A stretch of DNA of 64,000 nt from Escherichia coli (GCF_001677475.2 NZ_CP015229.1), one strand, 5' to 3'. Counted from the stretch's first letter, positions 17,728-26,303 are shown. Translations and numbers: made by a program. The notes: a model not told the origin generated them from the letters alone.

Positions 17728-19890
17728 ATGAAAAAAAATGCCCAGTCCGTGGAAGCCTGGCTGGAGGCGATGATCGCCGTGGCGCGTTATTACCGCCTTG
17801 ATTTTTCTCAGGAGAACGTGCGCGCAACCGTCAACTGGGAGCGCGACAGTAAGCGGGAAGAGTTGCTCACCGATATGGCGCGGCAACTGGGAATGGGGTT
17901 ACGGCTGGTGGAGTTTTCCGCCGATTCGCTTAACCCGTGGCGACTGCCGTTGATCGCCGTGTTTGATAATCAGCAGATTGGCGTGATCACCCGCCGCGAT
18001 AACCACGACAATATCAGCGTTCAGTTCAGCGGTGACGAAGGGCTGGAAACCACGCTTAACGTCGCGGATATTGAAGATAAAATCGTCGAACTGGCGCTAC
18101 TGCGCCCGCTCAGCGCCATCCCCGACGCGCGCGTGGATGACTATATTCGCCCGTATCAGGCGAACTGGTTCTGGAATCTGTCGCTGAAAGACTGGCGGCG
18201 CTATGGCGACATTATGCTGGCCTCGCTGGTGGCGAACGTGCTGGCGCTGGCGGCGATGATTTTCTCGATGCAGGTTTACGACCGCGTCGTTCCGGCGCAG
18301 TCGTACCCGACGCTATGGGTGCTGTTCGCCGGGGTGATGATGGCGATCCTGTTTGAGTTCTGTATGCGCATGGTGCGCACGCACCTTTCCGATGTGATCG
18401 GCAAGCGGGCGGATCTGCGCATTTCGGATCGCGTTTTTGGTCATGCGCTACGGCTGAAAAACAACGTGCGATCGAAATCCACCGGATCGTTTATCTCGCA
18501 GATCCGCGAGCTGGAATCGGTGCGGGAGCTTATTACTTCCACCACCATCGGCGCGGTGGCGGATCTGCCGTTCTTCCTGCTGTTTGTCTTTATTTTGTGG
18601 ATGATCGGCGGCTGGCTGGTGCTGGTTGTTTTGCTGGCGCTGCCGTTATTAGTGATCCCCGGCCTGCTGGTGCAACGCCCGCTGGCGCGGCTGGCGAACG
18701 AAGGAATGCGTGAGTCGGCGGTACGTAACGCGACGCTGGTGGAAGCCGTGCAGTCGATTGAAGACATTAAACTGCTGCGCGCTGAACAGCGTTTTCAGAA
18801 TCAGTGGAATCACACTAACGACGTGGCCTCGTCCATCAGCATGAAGCAACGTTTTCTCACCGGGCTACTGCTCACCTGGACCCAGGAAGTGCAATCCATC
18901 GTCTACGTGGTGGTGCTGTTGGTGGGCTGCTTTATGGTGATGAACGGCGACATGACCACCGGTGCGCTGGTCGGGACGACGATCCTGGCTTCGCGCACCA
19001 TCGCGCCGCTGTCGCAGATATCCGGCGTGCTCTCGCGCTGGCAGCAGGCGAAAGTGGCGCGTAACGGCCTCGATGAACTGATGAAGCGCCCGGTGGATCA
19101 ACCGGAACACGGCAAACTGGTGCATAAAGCAGTGCTGCACGGCAATTATCAGTTCAGCAACGCGGTGTTTTATTACGACGAAGAAGAGAAGATTGCCGAT
19201 GTGGCGATTGGCAAACTTAACATTCAGGCGGGTGAGAAAATCGCCATTCTTGGGCGCAACGGCGCGGGTAAATCGACGCTACTGCAAATGCTCGCCGGAA
19301 TGCGTATCGCCCAGCAGGGGCAGGTGCTGCTGGATAACATCAGCATCGGGCAGCTTGATCCGGCGGATCTGCGCCGCGACATGGGGCTGCTCAGCCAGAC
19401 CGGGCGACTGTTCTTCGGTTCGCTGCGGGAAAACCTCACTATGGGGATGCCGGAAGCCAGCGATGAAGATATCGAACGCGCATTAATCCTCAGCGGGGCG
19501 CTGCCCTTTGTGCAGAAGCAGAAAAACGGCCTCAACTACATGATTCAGGAAGGGGGATTTGGTCTTTCTGGCGGTCAGCGGCAAACGCTGCTGCTGGCGC
19601 GGCTACTTATCTCTCAACCCAATATCGTGCTGCTCGATGAACCCAGCGCCTCGCTGGATGAAATGGCAGAAGCGTATTTAATTGAACAACTAAAACAATG
19701 GGTTGGGCATCGCACGCTGGTCATCGCTACTCACCGCACGGCGATGCTGCAACTGGTGGACAGGATCATCGTGATGGATCAGGGGCGGATTGTGATGGAT
19801 GGCGCGAAAGAGGCCATTTTGCGTGAACAGGGCGAACCCACGACGCGACGGGTGGTGTTGCAGGAGAAGAATAAGGGGTCTGCCGCATGA
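17728..19890 (+). CDS. Type I secretion system ABC transporter, HlyB/LapB-like (ATPase plus permease, N-terminal C39-like domain)
   Basis: 720 aa; Walker A GRNGAGKST, ABC signature LSGGQRQ, Walker B LLDEPSASLD, hydrophobic TM segments in the middle. ATG lies 3 nt after the adhesin stop. Confidence 0.9.
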   Translation: MKKNAQSVEAWLEAMIAVARYYRLDFSQENVRATVNWERDSKREELLTDMARQLGMGLRLVEFSADSLNPWRLPLIAVFDNQQIGVITRRDNHDNISVQFSGDEGLETTLNVADIEDKIVELALLRPLSAIPDARVDDYIRPYQANWFWNLSLKDWRRYGDIMLASLVANVLALAAMIFSMQVYDRVVPAQSYPTLWVLFAGVMMAILFEFCMRMVRTHLSDVIGKRADLRISDRVFGHALRLKNNVRSKSTGSFISQIRELESVRELITSTTIGAVADLPFFLLFVFILWMIGGWLVLVVLLALPLLVIPGLLVQRPLARLANEGMRESAVRNATLVEAVQSIEDIKLLRAEQRFQNQWNHTNDVASSISMKQRFLTGLLLTWTQEVQSIVYVVVLLVGCFMVMNGDMTTGALVGTTILASRTIAPLSQISGVLSRWQQAKVARNGLDELMKRPVDQPEHGKLVHKAVLHGNYQFSNAVFYYDEEEKIADVAIGKLNIQAGEKIAILGRNGAGKSTLLQMLAGMRIAQQGQVLLDNISIGQLDPADLRRDMGLLSQTGRLFFGSLRENLTMGMPEASDEDIERALILSGALPFVQKQKNGLNYMIQEGGFGLSGGQRQTLLLARLLISQPNIVLLDEPSASLDEMAEAYLIEQLKQWVGHRTLVIATHRTAMLQLVDRIIVMDQGRIVMDGAKEAILREQGEPTTRRVVLQEKNKGSAA

Positions 19891-21062
19891 ATGGACAACT
19901 GCAATACAACCGTGGCCTGACTGAACCCCGCCTGCCGCGTTCGGCGCTGGCGGTACGCGTTACCGCTGTGATGCTGCTCTGTTTTCTCGGCTGGGCGTGG
20001 TACTTCCAGCTTGATGAAGTCACCACCGGCAGCGGCACGGTAGAACCTTCCGGGCGCGAACAGGTGGTGCAGTCGCTGGAAGGCGGAATTCTGTATCATC
20101 TCGACGTCAAGGTTGGCGATATTGTTGAACAGGGCCAGCCGCTGGCGCAGCTTAACCGCACCAAAACGGAATCCGACGTCCAGGAAGCAATGTCGCGGCT
20201 GTACGCGGCGCTGGCAACCTCGGCGCGGCTGCGGGCGGAAGTGAGTAATAAACCGCTGGTCTTCCCTGACGAACTGAATAAATTCCCCGAACTTATCGAG
20301 TCGGAAACGGCGTTGTACAACACTCGCCGCGATGGGCTGAACAAAGCCACCACCGGGCTGACGCAGGGGATTAGCCTGGTCAACCGCGAACTGGCGATGA
20401 CCCAGCCGCTGGTAAAACAGGGGGCGGCGAGCAGCGTCGAAGTGCTGCGCCTGCAACGCCAGGCCAATGAACTGGAAAACAAACTTAGCGACGTACGTAC
20501 GCAATATTACGTTCAGGCGCGCGAAGAGTTAGCGAAAGCCAATGCGGAAGTGGAAACCCAGCGTTCGGTGATCCGTGGACGGGAAGACTCCCTCACCAGG
20601 CTCAACTTTACTGCGCCAGTTCGTGGCATTGTTCAGGATATTGATGTCACCACAGTTGGCGGCGTCATTGCCCCCGGTGGTAAACTGATGACCATCGTGC
20701 CGCTGGATGAGCAACTGCTGATTGAGGCAAAAATCTCCCCGCGCGATGTGGCGTTTATCCATCCGGGGCAAAAATCGCTGGTGAAAATAACCGCTTACGA
20801 TTACTCCATTTATGGCGGTCTGCCGGGAGAAGTGGCGGTGATTTCACCAGATACCGTGCAGGATGAAGTGCGGCGCGATGTTTATTACTATCGGGTGTAC
20901 ATTCGCACTTTCAGCAACCATCTGGAAAACAAAAGCAAACAGCAGTTTCCGATATTTCCCGGTATGGTGGCGACGGTCGATATCCGCACCGGCAAAAAGA
21001 GCGTGCTGGATTATCTGTTGAAACCCTTTAATAAAGCACAGGAGGCGTTGCGCGAACGATGA
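19887..21062 (+). CDS. Type I secretion membrane fusion protein (HlyD family periplasmic adaptor)
   Basis: 391 aa; N-terminal TM segment, long coiled-coil region, C-terminal beta domain; 4-bp ATGA overlap with the ABC gene stop. Confidence 0.85.
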
Positions 21063-21466
21063 ACATTAGCGATGTAGCAAAAATTACCGGCCTGACCAGC
21101 AAAGCAATCCGCTTCTATGAAGAGAAGGGGCTGGTGACGCCGCCGATGCGCAGCGAAAATGGTTATCGCACCTACACGCAGCAGCATCTCAACGAACTGA
21201 CCTTACTGCGCCAGGCGCGCCAGGTGGGCTTTAACCTGGAAGAGAGCGGCGAACTGGTGAATCTGTTTAACGACCCGCAGCGCCACAGTGCTGATGTAAA
21301 ACGGCGCACGCTGGAGAAGGTGGCGGAGATCGAGCGACATATCGAAGAACTGCAATCCATGCGCAACCAGCTGTTGGCGCTGGCGAATGCCTGCCCTGGC
21401 GATGACAGCGCCGACTGCCCGATTATCGAAAATCTCTCCGGCTGCTGTCATCATCGGGCGGGGTGA
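21059..21466 (+). CDS. cueR: Copper-responsive MerR-family regulator CueR
   Basis: 135 aa; N-terminal MerR HTH ([25 protein letters not shown]) and C-terminal CxxxxxxxxC metal site ([10 protein letters not shown]); matches E. coli CueR as I recall it. ATG overlaps the HlyD-like stop (ATGA). Confidence 0.93.
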
Positions 21467-21469
21467 AAA

Positions 21470-21673
21470 TCAGTTAATCCCCGTTTGCACCGAAAGAATA
21501 TGCTGCAAACTTTCTACCATTATGCGCCCCGATTGAAATAAGCCTTCCTGGATTTCATTGTTAACATTCACAGCGTGAACCAGGGAGGCTAATAACACCA
21601 CTTGCAAGAAGGCAAAAATAAACGCACCGATAATCATAATATGCGTCAGGGGGATTTTCCTTTGCTCCTTCAT
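21470..21673 (-). CDS. Small hydrophobic membrane protein (67 aa), hypothetical
   Basis: One predicted TM helix (IMIIGAFIFAFLQVVLLASLV); start overlaps the upstream lipoprotein gene stop (ATGA); stop lies 3 nt from the convergent cueR stop. Confidence 0.45.
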   Translation of the reverse strand: MKEQRKIPLTHIMIIGAFIFAFLQVVLLASLVHAVNVNNEIQEGLFQSGRIMVESLQHILSVQTGIN

Positions 21674-22092
21674 TTTAAATAACCCACAAACTGACCTTCC
21701 TTCATTAAGGCGACTTTTCCCGTGTGGTGATAAACAATGACGTTATAAAGACCTGACTGATAAACAGTGGCATCTTTATTGTCTTCATCAATTGCACATA
21801 ATGAATCATTGAGATAAGCAAAGTTCTTACTGCTCATTCTAAAGGTCATGCCAAATCCTTTATAAATGGCTTTCTTTGCCGCCTGGGCATGTTGTGCGGC
21901 TTCTGCATTTTTAAATGCCTGCGCCTCGGATGCACTTAAAATAGCCGTCTGACGCTGTTGTTCTGCGAGATAACAGGTGTCATGGCTGACGCCCTGCGCC
22001 TGGCAATCTGCGATGCGGGAAGTGGGTGAACTACAGCCAGCCAGTAATATAACCGCCAGCAGGGAAAACGATTTAATGGAACTATTCATCAT
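21670..22092 (-). CDS. Putative lipoprotein (140 aa), hypothetical
   Basis: Signal peptide with lipobox LLAGC; co-directional with and downstream of the YadA-anchor gene. Confidence 0.6.
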   Translation of the reverse strand: MMNSSIKSFSLLAVILLAGCSSPTSRIADCQAQGVSHDTCYLAEQQRQTAILSASEAQAFKNAEAAQHAQAAKKAIYKGFGMTFRMSSKNFAYLNDSLCAIDEDNKDATVYQSGLYNVIVYHHTGKVALMKEGQFVGYLK

Positions 22093-22177
22093 TGTTAACC
22101 TTAAATAATGTACAAATTAATGAAGAGGTGAAACCCGGCAAGCTTCCTTGCTCTTATTTATATTGAGGATTGGAATA

Positions 22178-23194
22178 TTAGAAAGAATATCCCACGCCGA
22201 CACCCGCGCCGAAATCAGATTGCGTATCCGCAGAGACACCGGCTTTAATCACGGTATGCGTTCCGGCATTAAAAGATGTTCCTACAGACACCGCAGATTC
22301 ACCGTTGAACGTTCCCGCTCCCGCTGACACCATCATCAAGTCACCGGTTTTCACCTGTGGTTGTGAGGCGATAGCGATGGCAGATGCAGTTCCCGCATTG
22401 GCTTCTTTACGATTGTCCTCAACTTCGTTTTTCAGAGAATCGAAATGGTTATTGAGCGTGTTAATTTGTTGGCTGTTATCTGCGACCCGTTTTTGCGTGT
22501 TGGTTAACTGTTGCTGCGTTTGTGCGGAATCTTGTCTCAGACTTTCAATTTGCTCATGTGCCTGGACAGACTTCTGCGCCAGACTTTGCATTTGTTTATC
22601 GTATTGAGCCCTTTCTTTTTGCTGTTGTGCTGCCACATCGGTTGTCAGTGCATTCATTTTCTGCCCTTGTTCCGTGGTAGTGCGCTGAATAGCCTCATTT
22701 TGAGCCGCCAGTCTGGCATTAATCATCTCCTGATAATGCGCAGTATTTTGCGTATCTCCAGTCGCGGCGAGCGTTTTTTGTGTGGCTACGATCTGCGCCT
22801 GTTGCTCTGTAATTTGCGTTTGCTGGGCATCAGTTACCGCAGACTGTCGGGCGTTGATCATGCTCTGATAACGGGCTGGTGTCTGTGCATCACCTGTAGC
22901 GGCAACGGTTTTTTGTCCTGCGTCAGGATCTGTCTGGACAGTGGGAGTCTGAGTGGTATCAGGTGTTTCAGAAGGGATGTAGTGATGTTCAGTCAAATAG
23001 GTATACGCAGCGGGGCTGTTGTCTGTGCGTTCTAAAAAGCGGGTAATCTTCTGCTCAATCTCCGATTGCGACATGCCAGAGTTAATGGCTGAAAGCTCTG
23101 TTGCCGCCGCTTCAATGGTATCACCAGCTAAAACAACAGGGCTGGATGTTGCTGAAATTATGAGTGCCAGTAAAGCTACGTTTACAGTTTTCAT
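22178..23194 (-). CDS. Short trimeric-autotransporter-like protein with YadA-type C-terminal membrane anchor and Q-rich coiled-coil stalk, no recognisable head domain
   Basis: 338 aa; N-terminal signal peptide; last ~75 aa (AGTASAIAIASQPQVKTGDLMMVSAGAGTFNGESAVSVGTSFNAGTHTVIKAGVSADTQSDFGAGVGVGYSF) fit the YadA anchor pattern (G/A-rich entry helix, four beta strands, terminal aromatic); internal ~45-aa duplication in the stalk. Confidence 0.7.
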   Translation of the reverse strand: MKTVNVALLALIISATSSPVVLAGDTIEAAATELSAINSGMSQSEIEQKITRFLERTDNSPAAYTYLTEHHYIPSETPDTTQTPTVQTDPDAGQKTVAATGDAQTPARYQSMINARQSAVTDAQQTQITEQQAQIVATQKTLAATGDTQNTAHYQEMINARLAAQNEAIQRTTTEQGQKMNALTTDVAAQQQKERAQYDKQMQSLAQKSVQAHEQIESLRQDSAQTQQQLTNTQKRVADNSQQINTLNNHFDSLKNEVEDNRKEANAGTASAIAIASQPQVKTGDLMMVSAGAGTFNGESAVSVGTSFNAGTHTVIKAGVSADTQSDFGAGVGVGYSF

Positions 23195-23357
23195 TCATTT
23201 TCTCTTGTTCAAAATAAGTCGCACTAATGTTTCTATAAGAAACAAATAATATTATTTTAAGAAATAAACTACGTTGCAATTTAATCGAAATTTACGCCGC
23301 CATTTGTGTGATGTAAAGCGCATTTTTGTCTGGTGTAAGCGTAAACACCATCAATAA

Positions 23358-23382
23358 GAAACAAAAATGGTTTCTTATATAA
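23358..23382. promoter_or_regulatory. Perfect inverted repeat ATAAGAAAC-N7-GTTTCTTAT in the divergent promoter region; candidate operator
   Basis: Read directly from sequence; a partial copy TAAGAAACAAA occurs near 23236. Confidence 0.35.
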
Positions 23383-23560
23383 ATAAAAAAGGAAATCATT
23401 TCGTGCTCTTTCAATGTAAAAAAGAGTAAAGGCTTGTTTTGATAAGCGAAATAAATTCTGTTTCTGGACTAAACGTGAACCGGTTCCTGATGTGTGTTAA
23501 AATGCGTTTCTTTGATAAATCTCAATTTTTAAGAGGTTTACGCCAGGCAGGAAAATTTAA

Positions 23561-23923
23561 ATGAATGAATTTGAGAAGATTTTTAATGAAATGAATCTGG
23601 ACCGGGCATTGCTACCGATCCTTTTTCGTTCGAACCGGTCAACAGTGTGGAAATATTTAAGTGGCGATAGTACGGCTCCTGCCTCAGCTATGTCACTGAT
23701 TATGCTGTTGCAGTTAATCCAGAAACGAAACCCCGATCTGTTAGCCGAATGGTTAACGCTTTCTGATTTCACCATTCCGCCAGAAGTTTACCTGGACCAG
23801 CCTGATTACTGGAAAGGGTGGGTGTATACGCAACACAAGGTCAATAAAAACGTCCTGGAATATCTAAAAAAACATTATCCGGATGAAGACCAAAAAAACA
23901 TGAATAAAGGTAGTGACGAGTAA
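23561..23923 (+). CDS. Hypothetical protein (120 aa), possible small DNA-binding regulator
   Basis: ORF divergent from the YadA-anchor gene across a 366-bp AT-rich spacer; no confident family assignment from sequence alone. Confidence 0.4.
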   Translation: MNEFEKIFNEMNLDRALLPILFRSNRSTVWKYLSGDSTAPASAMSLIMLLQLIQKRNPDLLAEWLTLSDFTIPPEVYLDQPDYWKGWVYTQHKVNKNVLEYLKKHYPDEDQKNMNKGSDE

Positions 23924-23949
23924 TTTGCCAATGCCAGTTAATATAGCGG

Positions 23950-24107
<158 letters not shown>

Positions 24108-24115
<8 letters not shown>

Positions 24116-24566
24116 TGACCGCACGGATGATCAGCGTTATCCCTTCTATCGCAATTACTTCAACATGCGTACCTGCGCCGAGATCCTCGCTGGCGCTGAC
24201 AGGCCATGAACTGTCGCCGACGCGCATATGACCGCGCCCGTTGACCAGTGGAGATTCCAGCACAAAACGTCGGCCAATCAGCTGCTGCCCGCGCTGGTTT
24301 AAATGACTATCGCTGTGCTTTTGTTCGCGCACCCGCCGCGACAACCATTTCCACCACAGCCAGGCGGCGAGCAGCGTCAGGATGGCAAACATCACCCCTT
24401 GCCACTCCCAACCCAGCGGCACCAGCCAGACCACCAGGCCGGTAATCACCGCTGCCACGCCGCTCCAGAACAAATAACCATTTCCGCCCAACATCTCGGC
24501 TGCCAGCAGCAACCCGCCGAGACTGAGCCAGAAAATATGTGGATGAACGACCATTAACTCCATCAT
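24108..24566 (-). CDS. ybbJ: NfeD-family inner membrane protein
   Basis: 152 aa, hydrophobic N-terminal half; 4-bp overlap with the upstream SPFH-domain gene; conserved K-12 synteny. Confidence 0.85.
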
Positions 24567-25480
24567 GGCTGAGTCCGTTTGTTGGCGCTGTCTTTCACCA
24601 GCTCGGCAATCCCGGCAATCGACCCCATCAGGCTGCTGGCCTCTAATGGCATCATCACTACTTTGCTGTTACTGGAGGAACCGATCTGCTGTAACGCTTC
24701 GGTGTATTTCTGCGCTACGAAGTAGTTCACCGCCTGAATATCGCCGGAGGCAATGGCTTCAGACACCATTTTGGTGGCGCGGGCTTCTGCTTCAGCGGAA
24801 CGTTCACGCGCTTCAGCCTGTAAAAACGCCGACTGACGTTCACCTTCCGCTTTCAGGATTTGCGATTGTTTTTCACCTTCGGCTTTGAGGATTTCCGCCT
24901 GACGGATCCCTTCCGCTTCAAGGATGTAAGCGCGTTTGGTACGTTCCGCTTTCATCTGCGCGTTCATTGAAGAGATAAGCTCTGCCGGTGGGCGCACGTC
25001 GCGAATTTCAATACGGGTGACTTTAATCCCCCACGGGTTGGTGGCCTCATCGACAATACGCAGCAGGCGTGAGTTGATGCTGTCGCGCTGAGAGAGCATT
25101 TCATCAAGTTCCATTGAACCCAACACGGTACGGATGTTAGTCATGGTCAGGTTGATGATCGCCAGCTCCAGATTGCTGACTTCATAAGCGGCGCGCGGGG
25201 CATCAATCACCTGAATAAAGCACACGGCGTCGATGGTAACGTTGGCGTTATCTTTCGAGATAACTTCCTGGGAAGGGATGTCGAGAACTTGCTCCATCAT
25301 ATTGATCTTGCGACCAATGCGATCCATAAAGGGCACCACCAGGCTTAGACCTGGCTGTAACGTTTTGGTATAGCGACCAAAACGTTCTACTGTCCACTGA
25401 TAGCCCTGCGGCACGATTTTGACGCCCGCGCCAACAATGACCAGCGCGACAAAAATGAGAATCGGGATAAAGATAAGCAT
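24563..25480 (-). CDS. qmcA: SPFH/stomatin-family membrane protease QmcA
   Basis: 305 aa; N-terminal TM segment, SPFH domain, Lys/Glu/Ala-rich C-terminal coiled coil. Confidence 0.9.
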
Positions 25481-25625
25481 CGGAAAAACCTCCTGTTGTA
25501 CCGTCCATAATCAGCAAAATTGCTGCTTGATTAAACAAATTATACCTGATTACTGAAAGAGAGTTCCCCCTTATTCCTGCGAAGGATAAACTGTTTTTAG
25601 TAAAAATCAGAAAAAGGGAACAGCG

Positions 25626-26303
25626 ATGCAGGAAAATAGTCCTTTGCTTCAGCTACAAAACGTAGGATATCTGGTGGGTGATGCGAAGATTCTTAATAAC
25701 ATCAATTTTTCGCTGCGTGCTGGCGAATTTAAGTTAATTACCGGTCCTTCTGGTTGTGGCAAAAGTACGCTGCTAAAAATAGTTGCTTCATTGATCAGCC
25801 CAACCAGCGGAACGTTACTGTTTGAAGGTGAGGATGTCAGCACACTAAAGCCAGAAATCTACCGCCAGCAAGTCTCTTATTGCGCCCAGACGCCGACGCT
25901 GTTTGGCGATACGGTATACGATAATCTGATCTTTCCCTGGCAGATCCGTAACCAGCAGCCTGACCCGGCCATTTTTCTCGATTTTCTCGAACGCTTCGCT
26001 TTGCCGGACAGCATTTTGACGAAGAATATCGCCGAGCTATCTGGTGGTGAAAAACAACGCATCTCATTGATTCGTAACCTGCAATTTATGCCGAAGGTTT
26101 TATTGCTGGATGAAATCACCAGTGCGCTGGATGAAAGTAATAAACATAACGTTAATGAGATGATCCACCGGTATGTGCGCGAGCAAAATATTGCCGTGCT
26201 GTGGGTGACACACGATAAAGACGAAATTAATCATGCGGATAAGGTGATTACACTGCAACCGCATGCCGGAGAAATGCAGGAAGCACGCTATGAACTCGCA
26301 TAA
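25626..26303 (+). CDS. fetA: Iron export ABC transporter ATP-binding protein FetA (YbbL)
   Basis: 225 aa; Walker A GPSGCGKST, signature LSGGEKQR, Walker B LLLDEITSALD. Confidence 0.9.
   Translation: MQENSPLLQLQNVGYLVGDAKILNNINFSLRAGEFKLITGPSGCGKSTLLKIVASLISPTSGTLLFEGEDVSTLKPEIYRQQVSYCAQTPTLFGDTVYDNLIFPWQIRNQQPDPAIFLDFLERFALPDSILTKNIAELSGGEKQRISLIRNLQFMPKVLLLDEITSALDESNKHNVNEMIHRYVREQNIAVLWVTHDKDEINHADKVITLQPHAGEMQEARYELA

Follow-up and report, generated by a model that had tools for sequence, protein, structure and literature searches.

Does the stalk of a small YadA-anchor protein of Escherichia coli change in length between strains by gain or loss of an internal repeat, and what kind of protein carries this stalk? 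Both questions are raised by a 64,000-nucleotide (nt) stretch of E. coli DNA (GCF_001677475.2, NZ_CP015229.1), here called the window. An earlier reading made from the DNA alone (the sequence-only reading) had noted a tandem duplication of ~45 amino acids (aa) at 22300–23000, within the stalk, a coiled coil, of a protein with a YadA-type anchor, and had proposed that stalk length may vary between strains by repeat gain or loss. This region lies inside a single open reading frame (ORF), 22178–23194 on the minus strand (338 aa), in the cueR–ybbJ interval of E. coli; over 5.6 kb, the window is 97.6–97.9% identical to the nearest complete E. coli genomes. Here, we describe a duplication that is very probably ancient and frozen in the allele of the window, report the length variation found in other alleles at the same site, and identify the gene with gmrA, whose published role conflicts with the architecture of its product.

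Two stalk units that descend from an old tandem duplication

With a period of 45 aa, repeat unit B follows repeat unit A without any gap; the two are in frame and collinear. An ungapped local alignment of their protein sequences over 38 aa contains 23/38 identities and has a BLOSUM62 score of 106. Shuffles of the whole protein scored 39 ± 6.8 (maximum 81), and shuffles that preserve the Gln/Ala/Thr-rich composition of the stalk scored 33.7 ± 5.7 (maximum 60), with 0 of 3000 reaching the A/B score. Aligned to the remaining stalk, A and B scored 32 and 26, that is, they showed no resemblance to it. At the DNA level, the repeat was demonstrated by a codon-aligned comparison: identity is 61% over 114 nt, higher than for any other of the 34,453 segment pairs compared in frame within the gene (27.6 ± 4.6% for the background), and amounts to 74/74/37% at codon positions 1/2/3. 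The longest exact run common to A and B is 8 nt, and the repeat was missed both by Tandem Repeats Finder (TRF) and by a seed-based repeat finder when positions 20000–26000 of the window were searched. The internal duplication noted earlier was thus borne out, with both units inside 22300–23000. It had been described as a direct repeat of protein and DNA alike; this holds for the protein, and for the DNA only in a weak, codon-aligned sense. By these comparisons, A and B are a real and old tandem duplication, well outside what chance would give, in which synonymous sites are nearly saturated.

A stalk that consists of 19% Gln, 16% Ala and 11% Thr, and that gives weak coiled-coil noise matches to SMC, AAA_13 and other families, might come to resemble itself by convergence or composition bias of a Gln/Ala/Thr-rich helix and not by common descent. 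However, none of the composition-matched shuffles reached the observed score, the units are unlike the rest of the same stalk, and they abut exactly, in frame and in the same order. Moreover, a profile built from the unit matched only 11 proteins among 1.84 billion representatives, most of them with exactly two matched stretches. Shuffles, adjacency and profile specificity together effectively refute this explanation, to which we give almost no weight. The repeat unit instead appears to be specific to a small family around this protein, whose distant YadA-anchor members contain one unit (P0180, P0181) or two (P0178).

The pair is constant in length in all sampled genes of the window-allele lineage

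Searched against 5426 complete E. coli genomes, the gene was found in 1412. Matches to 80% or more of its length occur in 1027 of these, and identity is 95–99% in 1028. All of the sampled full-length rows (29/29) span exactly 1017 nt, those of E2348/69 and O157:H7 among them, the O157:H7 allele being 95.2% identical to that of the window. Consistent with this, the main protein cluster (P0001) comprises 1187 members at 338 aa. Rare metagenome singletons of the lineage have indels of 2–13 aa and never of a whole unit; one such protein, of 345 aa, has a 7-aa insertion in unit A.

These data bear on the possibility that A/B is an actively variable, contingency-type repeat whose copy number differs among strains with this allele and so tunes the length of the stalk. 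Gain of units or modules does occur in other alleles of the locus (see below), and similar behavior has been described for repetitive surface proteins, the 'Periscope proteins' (PMC8201768). Such proteins have near-identical, recombining repeats that differ in copy number. The A/B pair does not have the first of these properties, given its low identity, its short common run and its invisibility to TRF, and no copy-number difference was found in the window lineage, where all sampled genes have the same length, the 338-aa cluster dominates and the indels that do occur neither add nor remove a unit. Gain or loss of A or B is unlikely in this allele because the copies are too diverged to recombine. 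We therefore regard active variation of this pair as very improbable.

Other alleles at the locus gain modules and units

The remaining ~385 genomes have diverged alleles at the same syntenic site. Read from their true start, syntenic alleles in complete E. coli genomes encode 338, 436, 471, 594, 703 or 840 aa, the window allele being the shortest form at the locus. The length increments correspond to copies of a 369-nt (123-aa) module, 93–96% identical to one another, which are located after a Pro/Thr-rich linker and number 1–4 in the longer alleles and zero in the window allele; motif counts gave up to four modules in strain VCSW7. In long alleles, TRF reported a period of 369 nt with 1.9 and 2.7 copies (93–96% matches), and sampling with the 703-aa allele as a query returned spans of 1416, 1785 and 2112 nt. 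The long alleles in complete E. coli genomes all keep two repeat units of the A/B kind (QKT units), and the 436-aa allele has an internal 20-aa deletion in unit A. Judging from these sequences, most of the length variation at the locus comes from the 123-aa module and not from the A/B pair.

Across alleles at the locus, we found 2–3 QKT units. Complete genomes yielded two-unit alleles only, and the three-unit alleles came from draft or other Escherichia assemblies. A syntenic E. ruysiae allele of 480 aa has three 52-aa units, the DNA of the first two being 93% identical (TRF: period 156 nt, 91%). A second three-unit allele, of 497 aa, was found in Escherichia sp. and in an assembly labelled E. 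coli; it is likewise syntenic and has 38-aa units with 89% DNA identity (TRF: period 114 nt, 88%), and its best match when the 5426 complete E. coli genomes were searched, at 87% identity, is not close. The third form with three units, an E. coli protein of 577 aa (P0017), contains a duplicated 121-aa segment that includes unit A, the copies being 100% identical and 121 aa apart. Re-duplicated A units are 84–92% identical in protein and 89–93% in DNA, and the longest identical runs of recent duplicates in other alleles are 41–132 nt. Orthologs that uniformly carry two copies and do not vary in length, which would have argued against the earlier proposal, are thus not what the locus contains. 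Rather, variation in stalk length between strains through repeat gain or loss was found at the level of the locus (338–840 aa), and not in the window's own lineage.

We also noted that unit 3 of the E. ruysiae allele (locus L005, 4001–5443) is A-like in its first half (QKTVAATGDVQTAARYQSMVNA) and B-like in its second half (KLAAENEA...), a mosaic that suggests gene conversion between units.

The annotation of long alleles is a separate matter. For each of the five long alleles that we examined, RefSeq gives a 'YadA-like family protein' of 349 aa that begins at an internal start and has no signal peptide (L001 2590–3639; L003 2512–3561; L004 2332–3381; L011 3939–4988; L012 4227–5276). The frame is open upstream of this start to a conserved M[KN]TVKLSLL... 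signal peptide, which gives true lengths of 471, 594, 703, 594 and 840 aa, respectively. The internal start conceals the tandem 123-aa modules; hence pan-genome and adhesin surveys under-measure this protein and miss its signal peptide.

The duplication predates the allele families of Escherichia

Units from different alleles were compared one by one over their first 30 residues. A-type units (..ARYQSMI[ND]ARQ..) are 73–96% identical between alleles and B-type units (..AHYQEM[IV]NARL..) 60–100%, compared with 50–70% between A-type and B-type units. Units of either type thus have their orthologs in the other alleles, which makes the duplication older than the Escherichia allele families.

A single ancient tandem duplication, in the helical, membrane-distal half of the passenger, gave rise to A and B; we propose that it lengthened the stalk once and was then fixed. 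Each unit would add ~40 helical residues, or a rod of ~6–7 nm, between the anchor-proximal coiled coil and the N-terminal tip, and the duplication would thereby have set the distance of the tip domain from the outer membrane. Identical tracts of 41–132 nt suffice for unequal homologous exchange by RecA-dependent recombination or for slippage. Young copies would vary because they have tracts of this length. The A/B pair, without long identical tracts, would be frozen, with neither unequal homologous recombination nor replication slippage between the copies any longer possible. In other alleles, unit A was re-duplicated later and independently, recently in the three-unit alleles, a separate 123-aa module expanded and contracted, and heptad-sized indels within units changed the unit length. 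Internal repeats are common in autotransporter stalks, and the duplication itself changes little. What the locus appears to present is a life cycle of stalk repeats, from young recombinogenic copies (93–100% identical, 1–4 copies) to an old frozen pair (61%).

Predicted architecture of the protein and extent of the coiled coil

The C-terminus of the 338-aa protein matches the Pfam family YadA_anchor (PF03895) at E = 6.1e-12 and 45.9 bits (cut-off 22.7), and a PDB sequence search matched its last ~90 residues to anchors of known structure, those of AtaA (9vnj, E = 2.7e-7), Hia (2gr7 and 3emo) and YadA (2lme). Such an anchor has four β-strands per chain. YadA_anchor was the sole Pfam family above cut-off in the 338-, 436-, 480-, 497- and 703-aa alleles, in none of which was a head or neck domain detected. 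By inspection, the N-terminus has the features of a signal peptide (K2, a hydrophobic core, and V-L-A ahead of G24), and this peptide is kept in all alleles. An AlphaFold2 model of the monomer, based on 48 homologues, is of low confidence over aa 1–24 (predicted local distance difference test, pLDDT, <50). It contains three short helices in the small N-terminal domain (aa 27–34, 43–56 and 61–69; pLDDT ~78), in which many columns are invariant and which is predicted to be the distal tip of the passenger, and leaves aa 76–102, where the Pro/Thr-rich linker lies, unstructured (pLDDT <50). The anchor is not modelled (pLDDT ~27), which is expected when a trimeric barrel is represented by a single chain. 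Collectively, these features characterize the product as a short, head-less protein of the trimeric autotransporter type, with trimer formation and surface exposure as predictions.

Between linker and anchor, the model places a helix at aa 104–145 and, after a break at G146–D147, one long helix at aa 148–276 (pLDDT up to 97), so that the anchor-proximal stalk lies within one continuous helix (pLDDT 92–97 over aa 201–260). The period-3.5 hydrophobicity power of aa 184–278 is 67.6, compared with 44.7 for the 99th percentile of shuffles, and significant heptad periodicity is confined to aa 185–270. The 'coiled-coil' stalk of the sequence-only reading was therefore confirmed only for its anchor-proximal half. 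For aa 94–183, the prediction is a helix of moderate confidence, and we refer to this part as a helical stalk.

Each unit opens with a conserved [VL]-A-A-T-G-D hexad, and the AlphaFold2 helix is broken at the conserved G-D of each xAATGD motif. The unit lengths of 38, 45 and 52 aa differ in seven-residue steps and are all 3 modulo 7, as would result from heptads with a single insertion of three residues. Hartmann et al. (2016; PMC4786415) give [aliphatic]-A-T-K-[polar]-[DE] as the consensus of β-layers in the stalks of trimeric autotransporter adhesins (TAAs). The hexad agrees with only 3/6 positions of this consensus, namely an aliphatic residue first, A second and D last. Compared with the stammers and β-layers of TAAs, it is loosely reminiscent, and the unit lengths fit; we take the likeness of [VL]AATGD to a β-layer as a resemblance and a lead only.

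In long alleles, the coiled coil next to the anchor additionally contains a tandem pair of 42 nt (14 aa, or two heptads), EQIxSLTQDxTQTH twice, with 78% matches (L003 3142–3225; L004 2962–3045). It is only faint in the window allele, at about aa 211–238.

The gene is gmrA, and its published role conflicts with its architecture

The lambda-Red arms published for the deletion of gmrA (Yang et al., 2018, supplementary Table S2; PMC5826968) match positions 22140–22177 and 23195–23233 with 1–2 mismatches, exactly flanking the ORF. In that paper, gmrA is Z0639 of O-island 29 in E. coli O157:H7 EDL933, and the match of the arms identifies the YadA-anchor ORF with this gene. GmrA was described there as a transcriptional activator that is cytoplasmic and binds to the fliA promoter: deletion of gmrA reduced motility and flagellation, complementation was performed, and binding to the fliA promoter was assayed by electrophoretic mobility shift and by chromatin immunoprecipitation with quantitative PCR. 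The 'putative DNA-binding domain' of GmrA was taken from a CDD search. A literature search returned no paper that describes a TAA at the cueR locus, and a search for GmrA together with 'autotransporter' returned reviews only, of which the one examined, a later review, repeats the regulator description.

Scans with Pfam and NCBIfam found no helix-turn-helix or other DNA-binding family in the ORF; all that they returned in this respect were coiled-coil matches below threshold, for example to SMC_prok_B (24 bits, cut-off 567). The domain predicted by CDD may be a coiled-coil false positive of the SMC kind.

If GmrA acts as published, namely as a cytoplasmic activator of fliA, the helical units would serve oligomerization or DNA binding. 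The motility, complementation, mobility-shift and chromatin data speak for this, as does the finding that the island deletion had no adherence defect. On the other hand, the gene that was deleted is this very ORF, with its signal-peptide-like N-terminus, a C-terminal YadA_anchor match well above cut-off and an aromatic end; the scans detected no DNA-binding domain; and the gene lies within a conserved unit with a lipoprotein gene and a gene for a small membrane protein. We consider the published role improbable, and the sequence evidence for an exported outer-membrane protein strong. A fuller reading, which we favor by a little over even chances, is that 'GmrA' is a head-less outer-membrane trimeric autotransporter, encoded in an operon with the lipoprotein and the small membrane protein; that its rod is polymorphic in length (338–840 aa, from 38/45/52-aa units and the 123-aa module); that its effect on motility is indirect, for example through envelope signalling; and that xAATGD...RYQxMxNA is an uncatalogued stalk element with a helix discontinuity. 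The motility phenotype itself is not disputed by our analysis; its mechanism deserves re-examination. The conflict, between the only functional paper, which reports a transcription factor, and an architecture that points to export to the outer membrane, matters for the place of GmrA in models of flagellar regulation.

Taken as a whole, the evidence makes it very likely that the window contains an ancient, frozen A/B duplication in the stalk of a short, head-less TAA-type protein on O-island 29. Several observations weigh against this. The sole experimental paper on the gene reports a cytoplasmic, DNA-binding role, and deletion of O-island 29 caused no defect in adherence to HeLa or Caco-2 cells (PMC5826968). 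No significant period-3.5 signal was found for aa 94–183, either globally or in the helices at aa 104–145 and 148–183, and the helicity of the repeat region comes from a monomer AlphaFold2 model of moderate confidence (pLDDT ~70–84). Lastly, the length uniformity of the 338-aa allele was established from a sample only (29 rows and summary counts), and the single metagenome-derived proteins with 2–13-aa indels may be real or assembly errors.

Features of the island and neighboring genes

The features of the island are listed in Table 1. The island (~21470–23950) has a GC content of 30–50%, compared with 55–59% in its flanks, and the intergenic region upstream of the adhesin gene has 30–37%. In the consensus scan that gave the promoter match in Table 1, the number of sites was not above that in shuffles. 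No Rfam family was found within the adhesin gene, and two antisense ORFs, 22305–22607 and 22511–23035, sit opposite the conserved coding frame.

Table 1. Positions of the YadA-anchor ORF, its parts and the neighboring island genes in the window.
Feature	Coordinates	Strand	Basis
ORF of 338 aa with YadA-type anchor	22178..23194	minus	ORF list, Pfam, PDB, gmrA deletion arms
Probable Sec signal peptide, aa 1–23, MKTVNVALLALIISATSSPVVLA before GD	23126..23194	minus	Read by inspection
Small N-terminal domain, aa 24–75, three short helices	22970..23125	minus	AlphaFold2, conserved columns
Pro/Thr-rich linker, aa 76–93	22916..22969	minus	AlphaFold2, allele comparison
Repeat unit A, aa 94–138, QKTVAATGDAQTPARYQSMINARQSAV...	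22781..22915	minus	
Repeat unit B, aa 139–183, QKTLAATGDTQNTAHYQEMINARLAAQ...	22646..22780	minus	
Heptad-periodic coiled-coil stalk adjoining the anchor, aa 184–278	22361..22645	minus	Periodicity, AlphaFold2
YadA-like membrane anchor, aa 279–338, C-terminus ...GVGYSF	22181..22360	minus	Pfam PF03895, PDB matches
Sigma-70-like promoter match, TTGCAA-17-AATAAT, 57 nt upstream of the start codon	23251..23279	minus	Consensus scan
Lipoprotein of 140 aa (z0638), downstream	21670..22092	minus	Lipobox LLAGC; z0638 deletion arm ends at 21670
Hydrophobic small ORF of 67 aa, start overlapping the lipoprotein stop	21470..21673	minus	
ORF of 120 aa (z0640), divergent, third island gene	23561..23923	plus	z0640 deletion arm matches 23523–23561

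The z0638 lipoprotein gene is probably co-transcribed with the adhesin gene. Among the fetched Escherichia loci, all those with a gene table for this part have it, together with the 67-aa ORF, after the adhesin gene. Homologues of the lipoprotein also adjoin YadA_anchor genes in Enterobacter asburiae and Pseudocitrobacter faecalis, where the sites are unrelated (L008 2960–4471; L009 1–4707), which suggests that the z0638-type lipoprotein is a dedicated partner of the YadA-anchor protein; a homologue in a third Enterobacter contig has no adjoining YadA_anchor gene.

We considered the lipoprotein as a homologue of SadB and, on the evidence obtained so far, rejected this. With SadB it shares only the general layout (lipobox, long helix and β domain) and the adjacency to a TAA gene. 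No PDB sequence match was found at E < 0.39, and a Foldseek search with its AlphaFold2 model (mean pLDDT 71) returned none at E ≤ 0.001, SadB being absent among the 50 matches listed. For the lipoprotein, the 67-aa ORF and the 120-aa ORF, NCBIfam and Pfam gave nothing above cut-off; z0640 has a very weak MqsA-antitoxin-like match (E = 0.081).

Between the adhesin gene and z0640, which diverge, the intergenic DNA is AT-rich (30% GC). It contains a tandem repeat of 22 nt (23225–23268, two copies with 77% matches) and, at a spacing of 119 nt, a direct repeat of 37 nt (23232–23387); both could be regulatory sites. Between z0640 and ybbJ, at 23953–24114, lie repeats of the REP/BIME type (repetitive extragenic palindromes and bacterial interspersed mosaic elements), comprising direct repeats of 35 nt (94% identical) and 17 nt with ~100-nt spacing; the Rfam family naRNA4 (RF02564) matches 23981–24058 on the minus strand at 74.4 bits. 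Farther along, qmcA (24563–25480, minus) contains three tandem 33-nt copies at 24830–24928, 73–79% identical to the reference copy, which encode an 11-aa repeat in the C-terminal part of the SPFH protein QmcA.

On the other side of the island, a gene for a HlyD-family type I secretion adaptor (19887–21062, plus) ends 4 nt inside cueR (start 21059). In related genomes, a type I secretion permease/ATPase gene lies ahead of the HlyD-family gene, and an RTX-type locus has been described at this site in enteroaggregative E. coli 042 and in O157:H7 (PMC2808357). Some strains (L001, L006) have the adhesin island without this RTX-type/type I secretion locus.

Comparison with known systems

The window protein has in common with TAAs (type Vc: YadA, Hia, AtaA, SadA and UpaG/EhaG) the C-terminal YadA-like anchor, a heptad coiled coil that leads without interruption into the anchor, an N-terminal signal peptide, here recognized by inspection, and a modular, repetitive passenger of allele-dependent length. 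It differs from them in being very short, in having no catalogued head, neck or passenger domain, and in a tip formed by a three-helix domain of ~50 aa; recognized head and neck domains are typical of TAAs and not obligatory. No adhesive activity is known for the window protein, and the O157:H7 island deletion did not change adherence (PMC5826968). Compared with GmrA as published in the same study, the gene is the same, but its product has an exported outer-membrane architecture instead of a DNA-binding family.

Like the Periscope proteins (PMC8201768) and Bartonella BadA (PMC9602544), the locus varies by whole, near-identical tandem DNA repeats, here of 369 nt (1–4 copies), 156 nt and 114 nt, which would project the tip to different distances. 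At the level of the locus, these repeats have 88–96% matches and identical runs of 41–132 nt, and the 123-aa module ranges from 0 to 4 copies. Unlike those of Periscope proteins and BadA, they are helical segments and not globular domains. The A/B pair, diverged in DNA (61%) and invariant in its lineage, would be a fossil of this process and no longer an active case of it. Surface proteins (PMC8201768) and repetitive TAA passengers are well known to vary in length by tandem repeats, and the present finding is a further example of this behavior.

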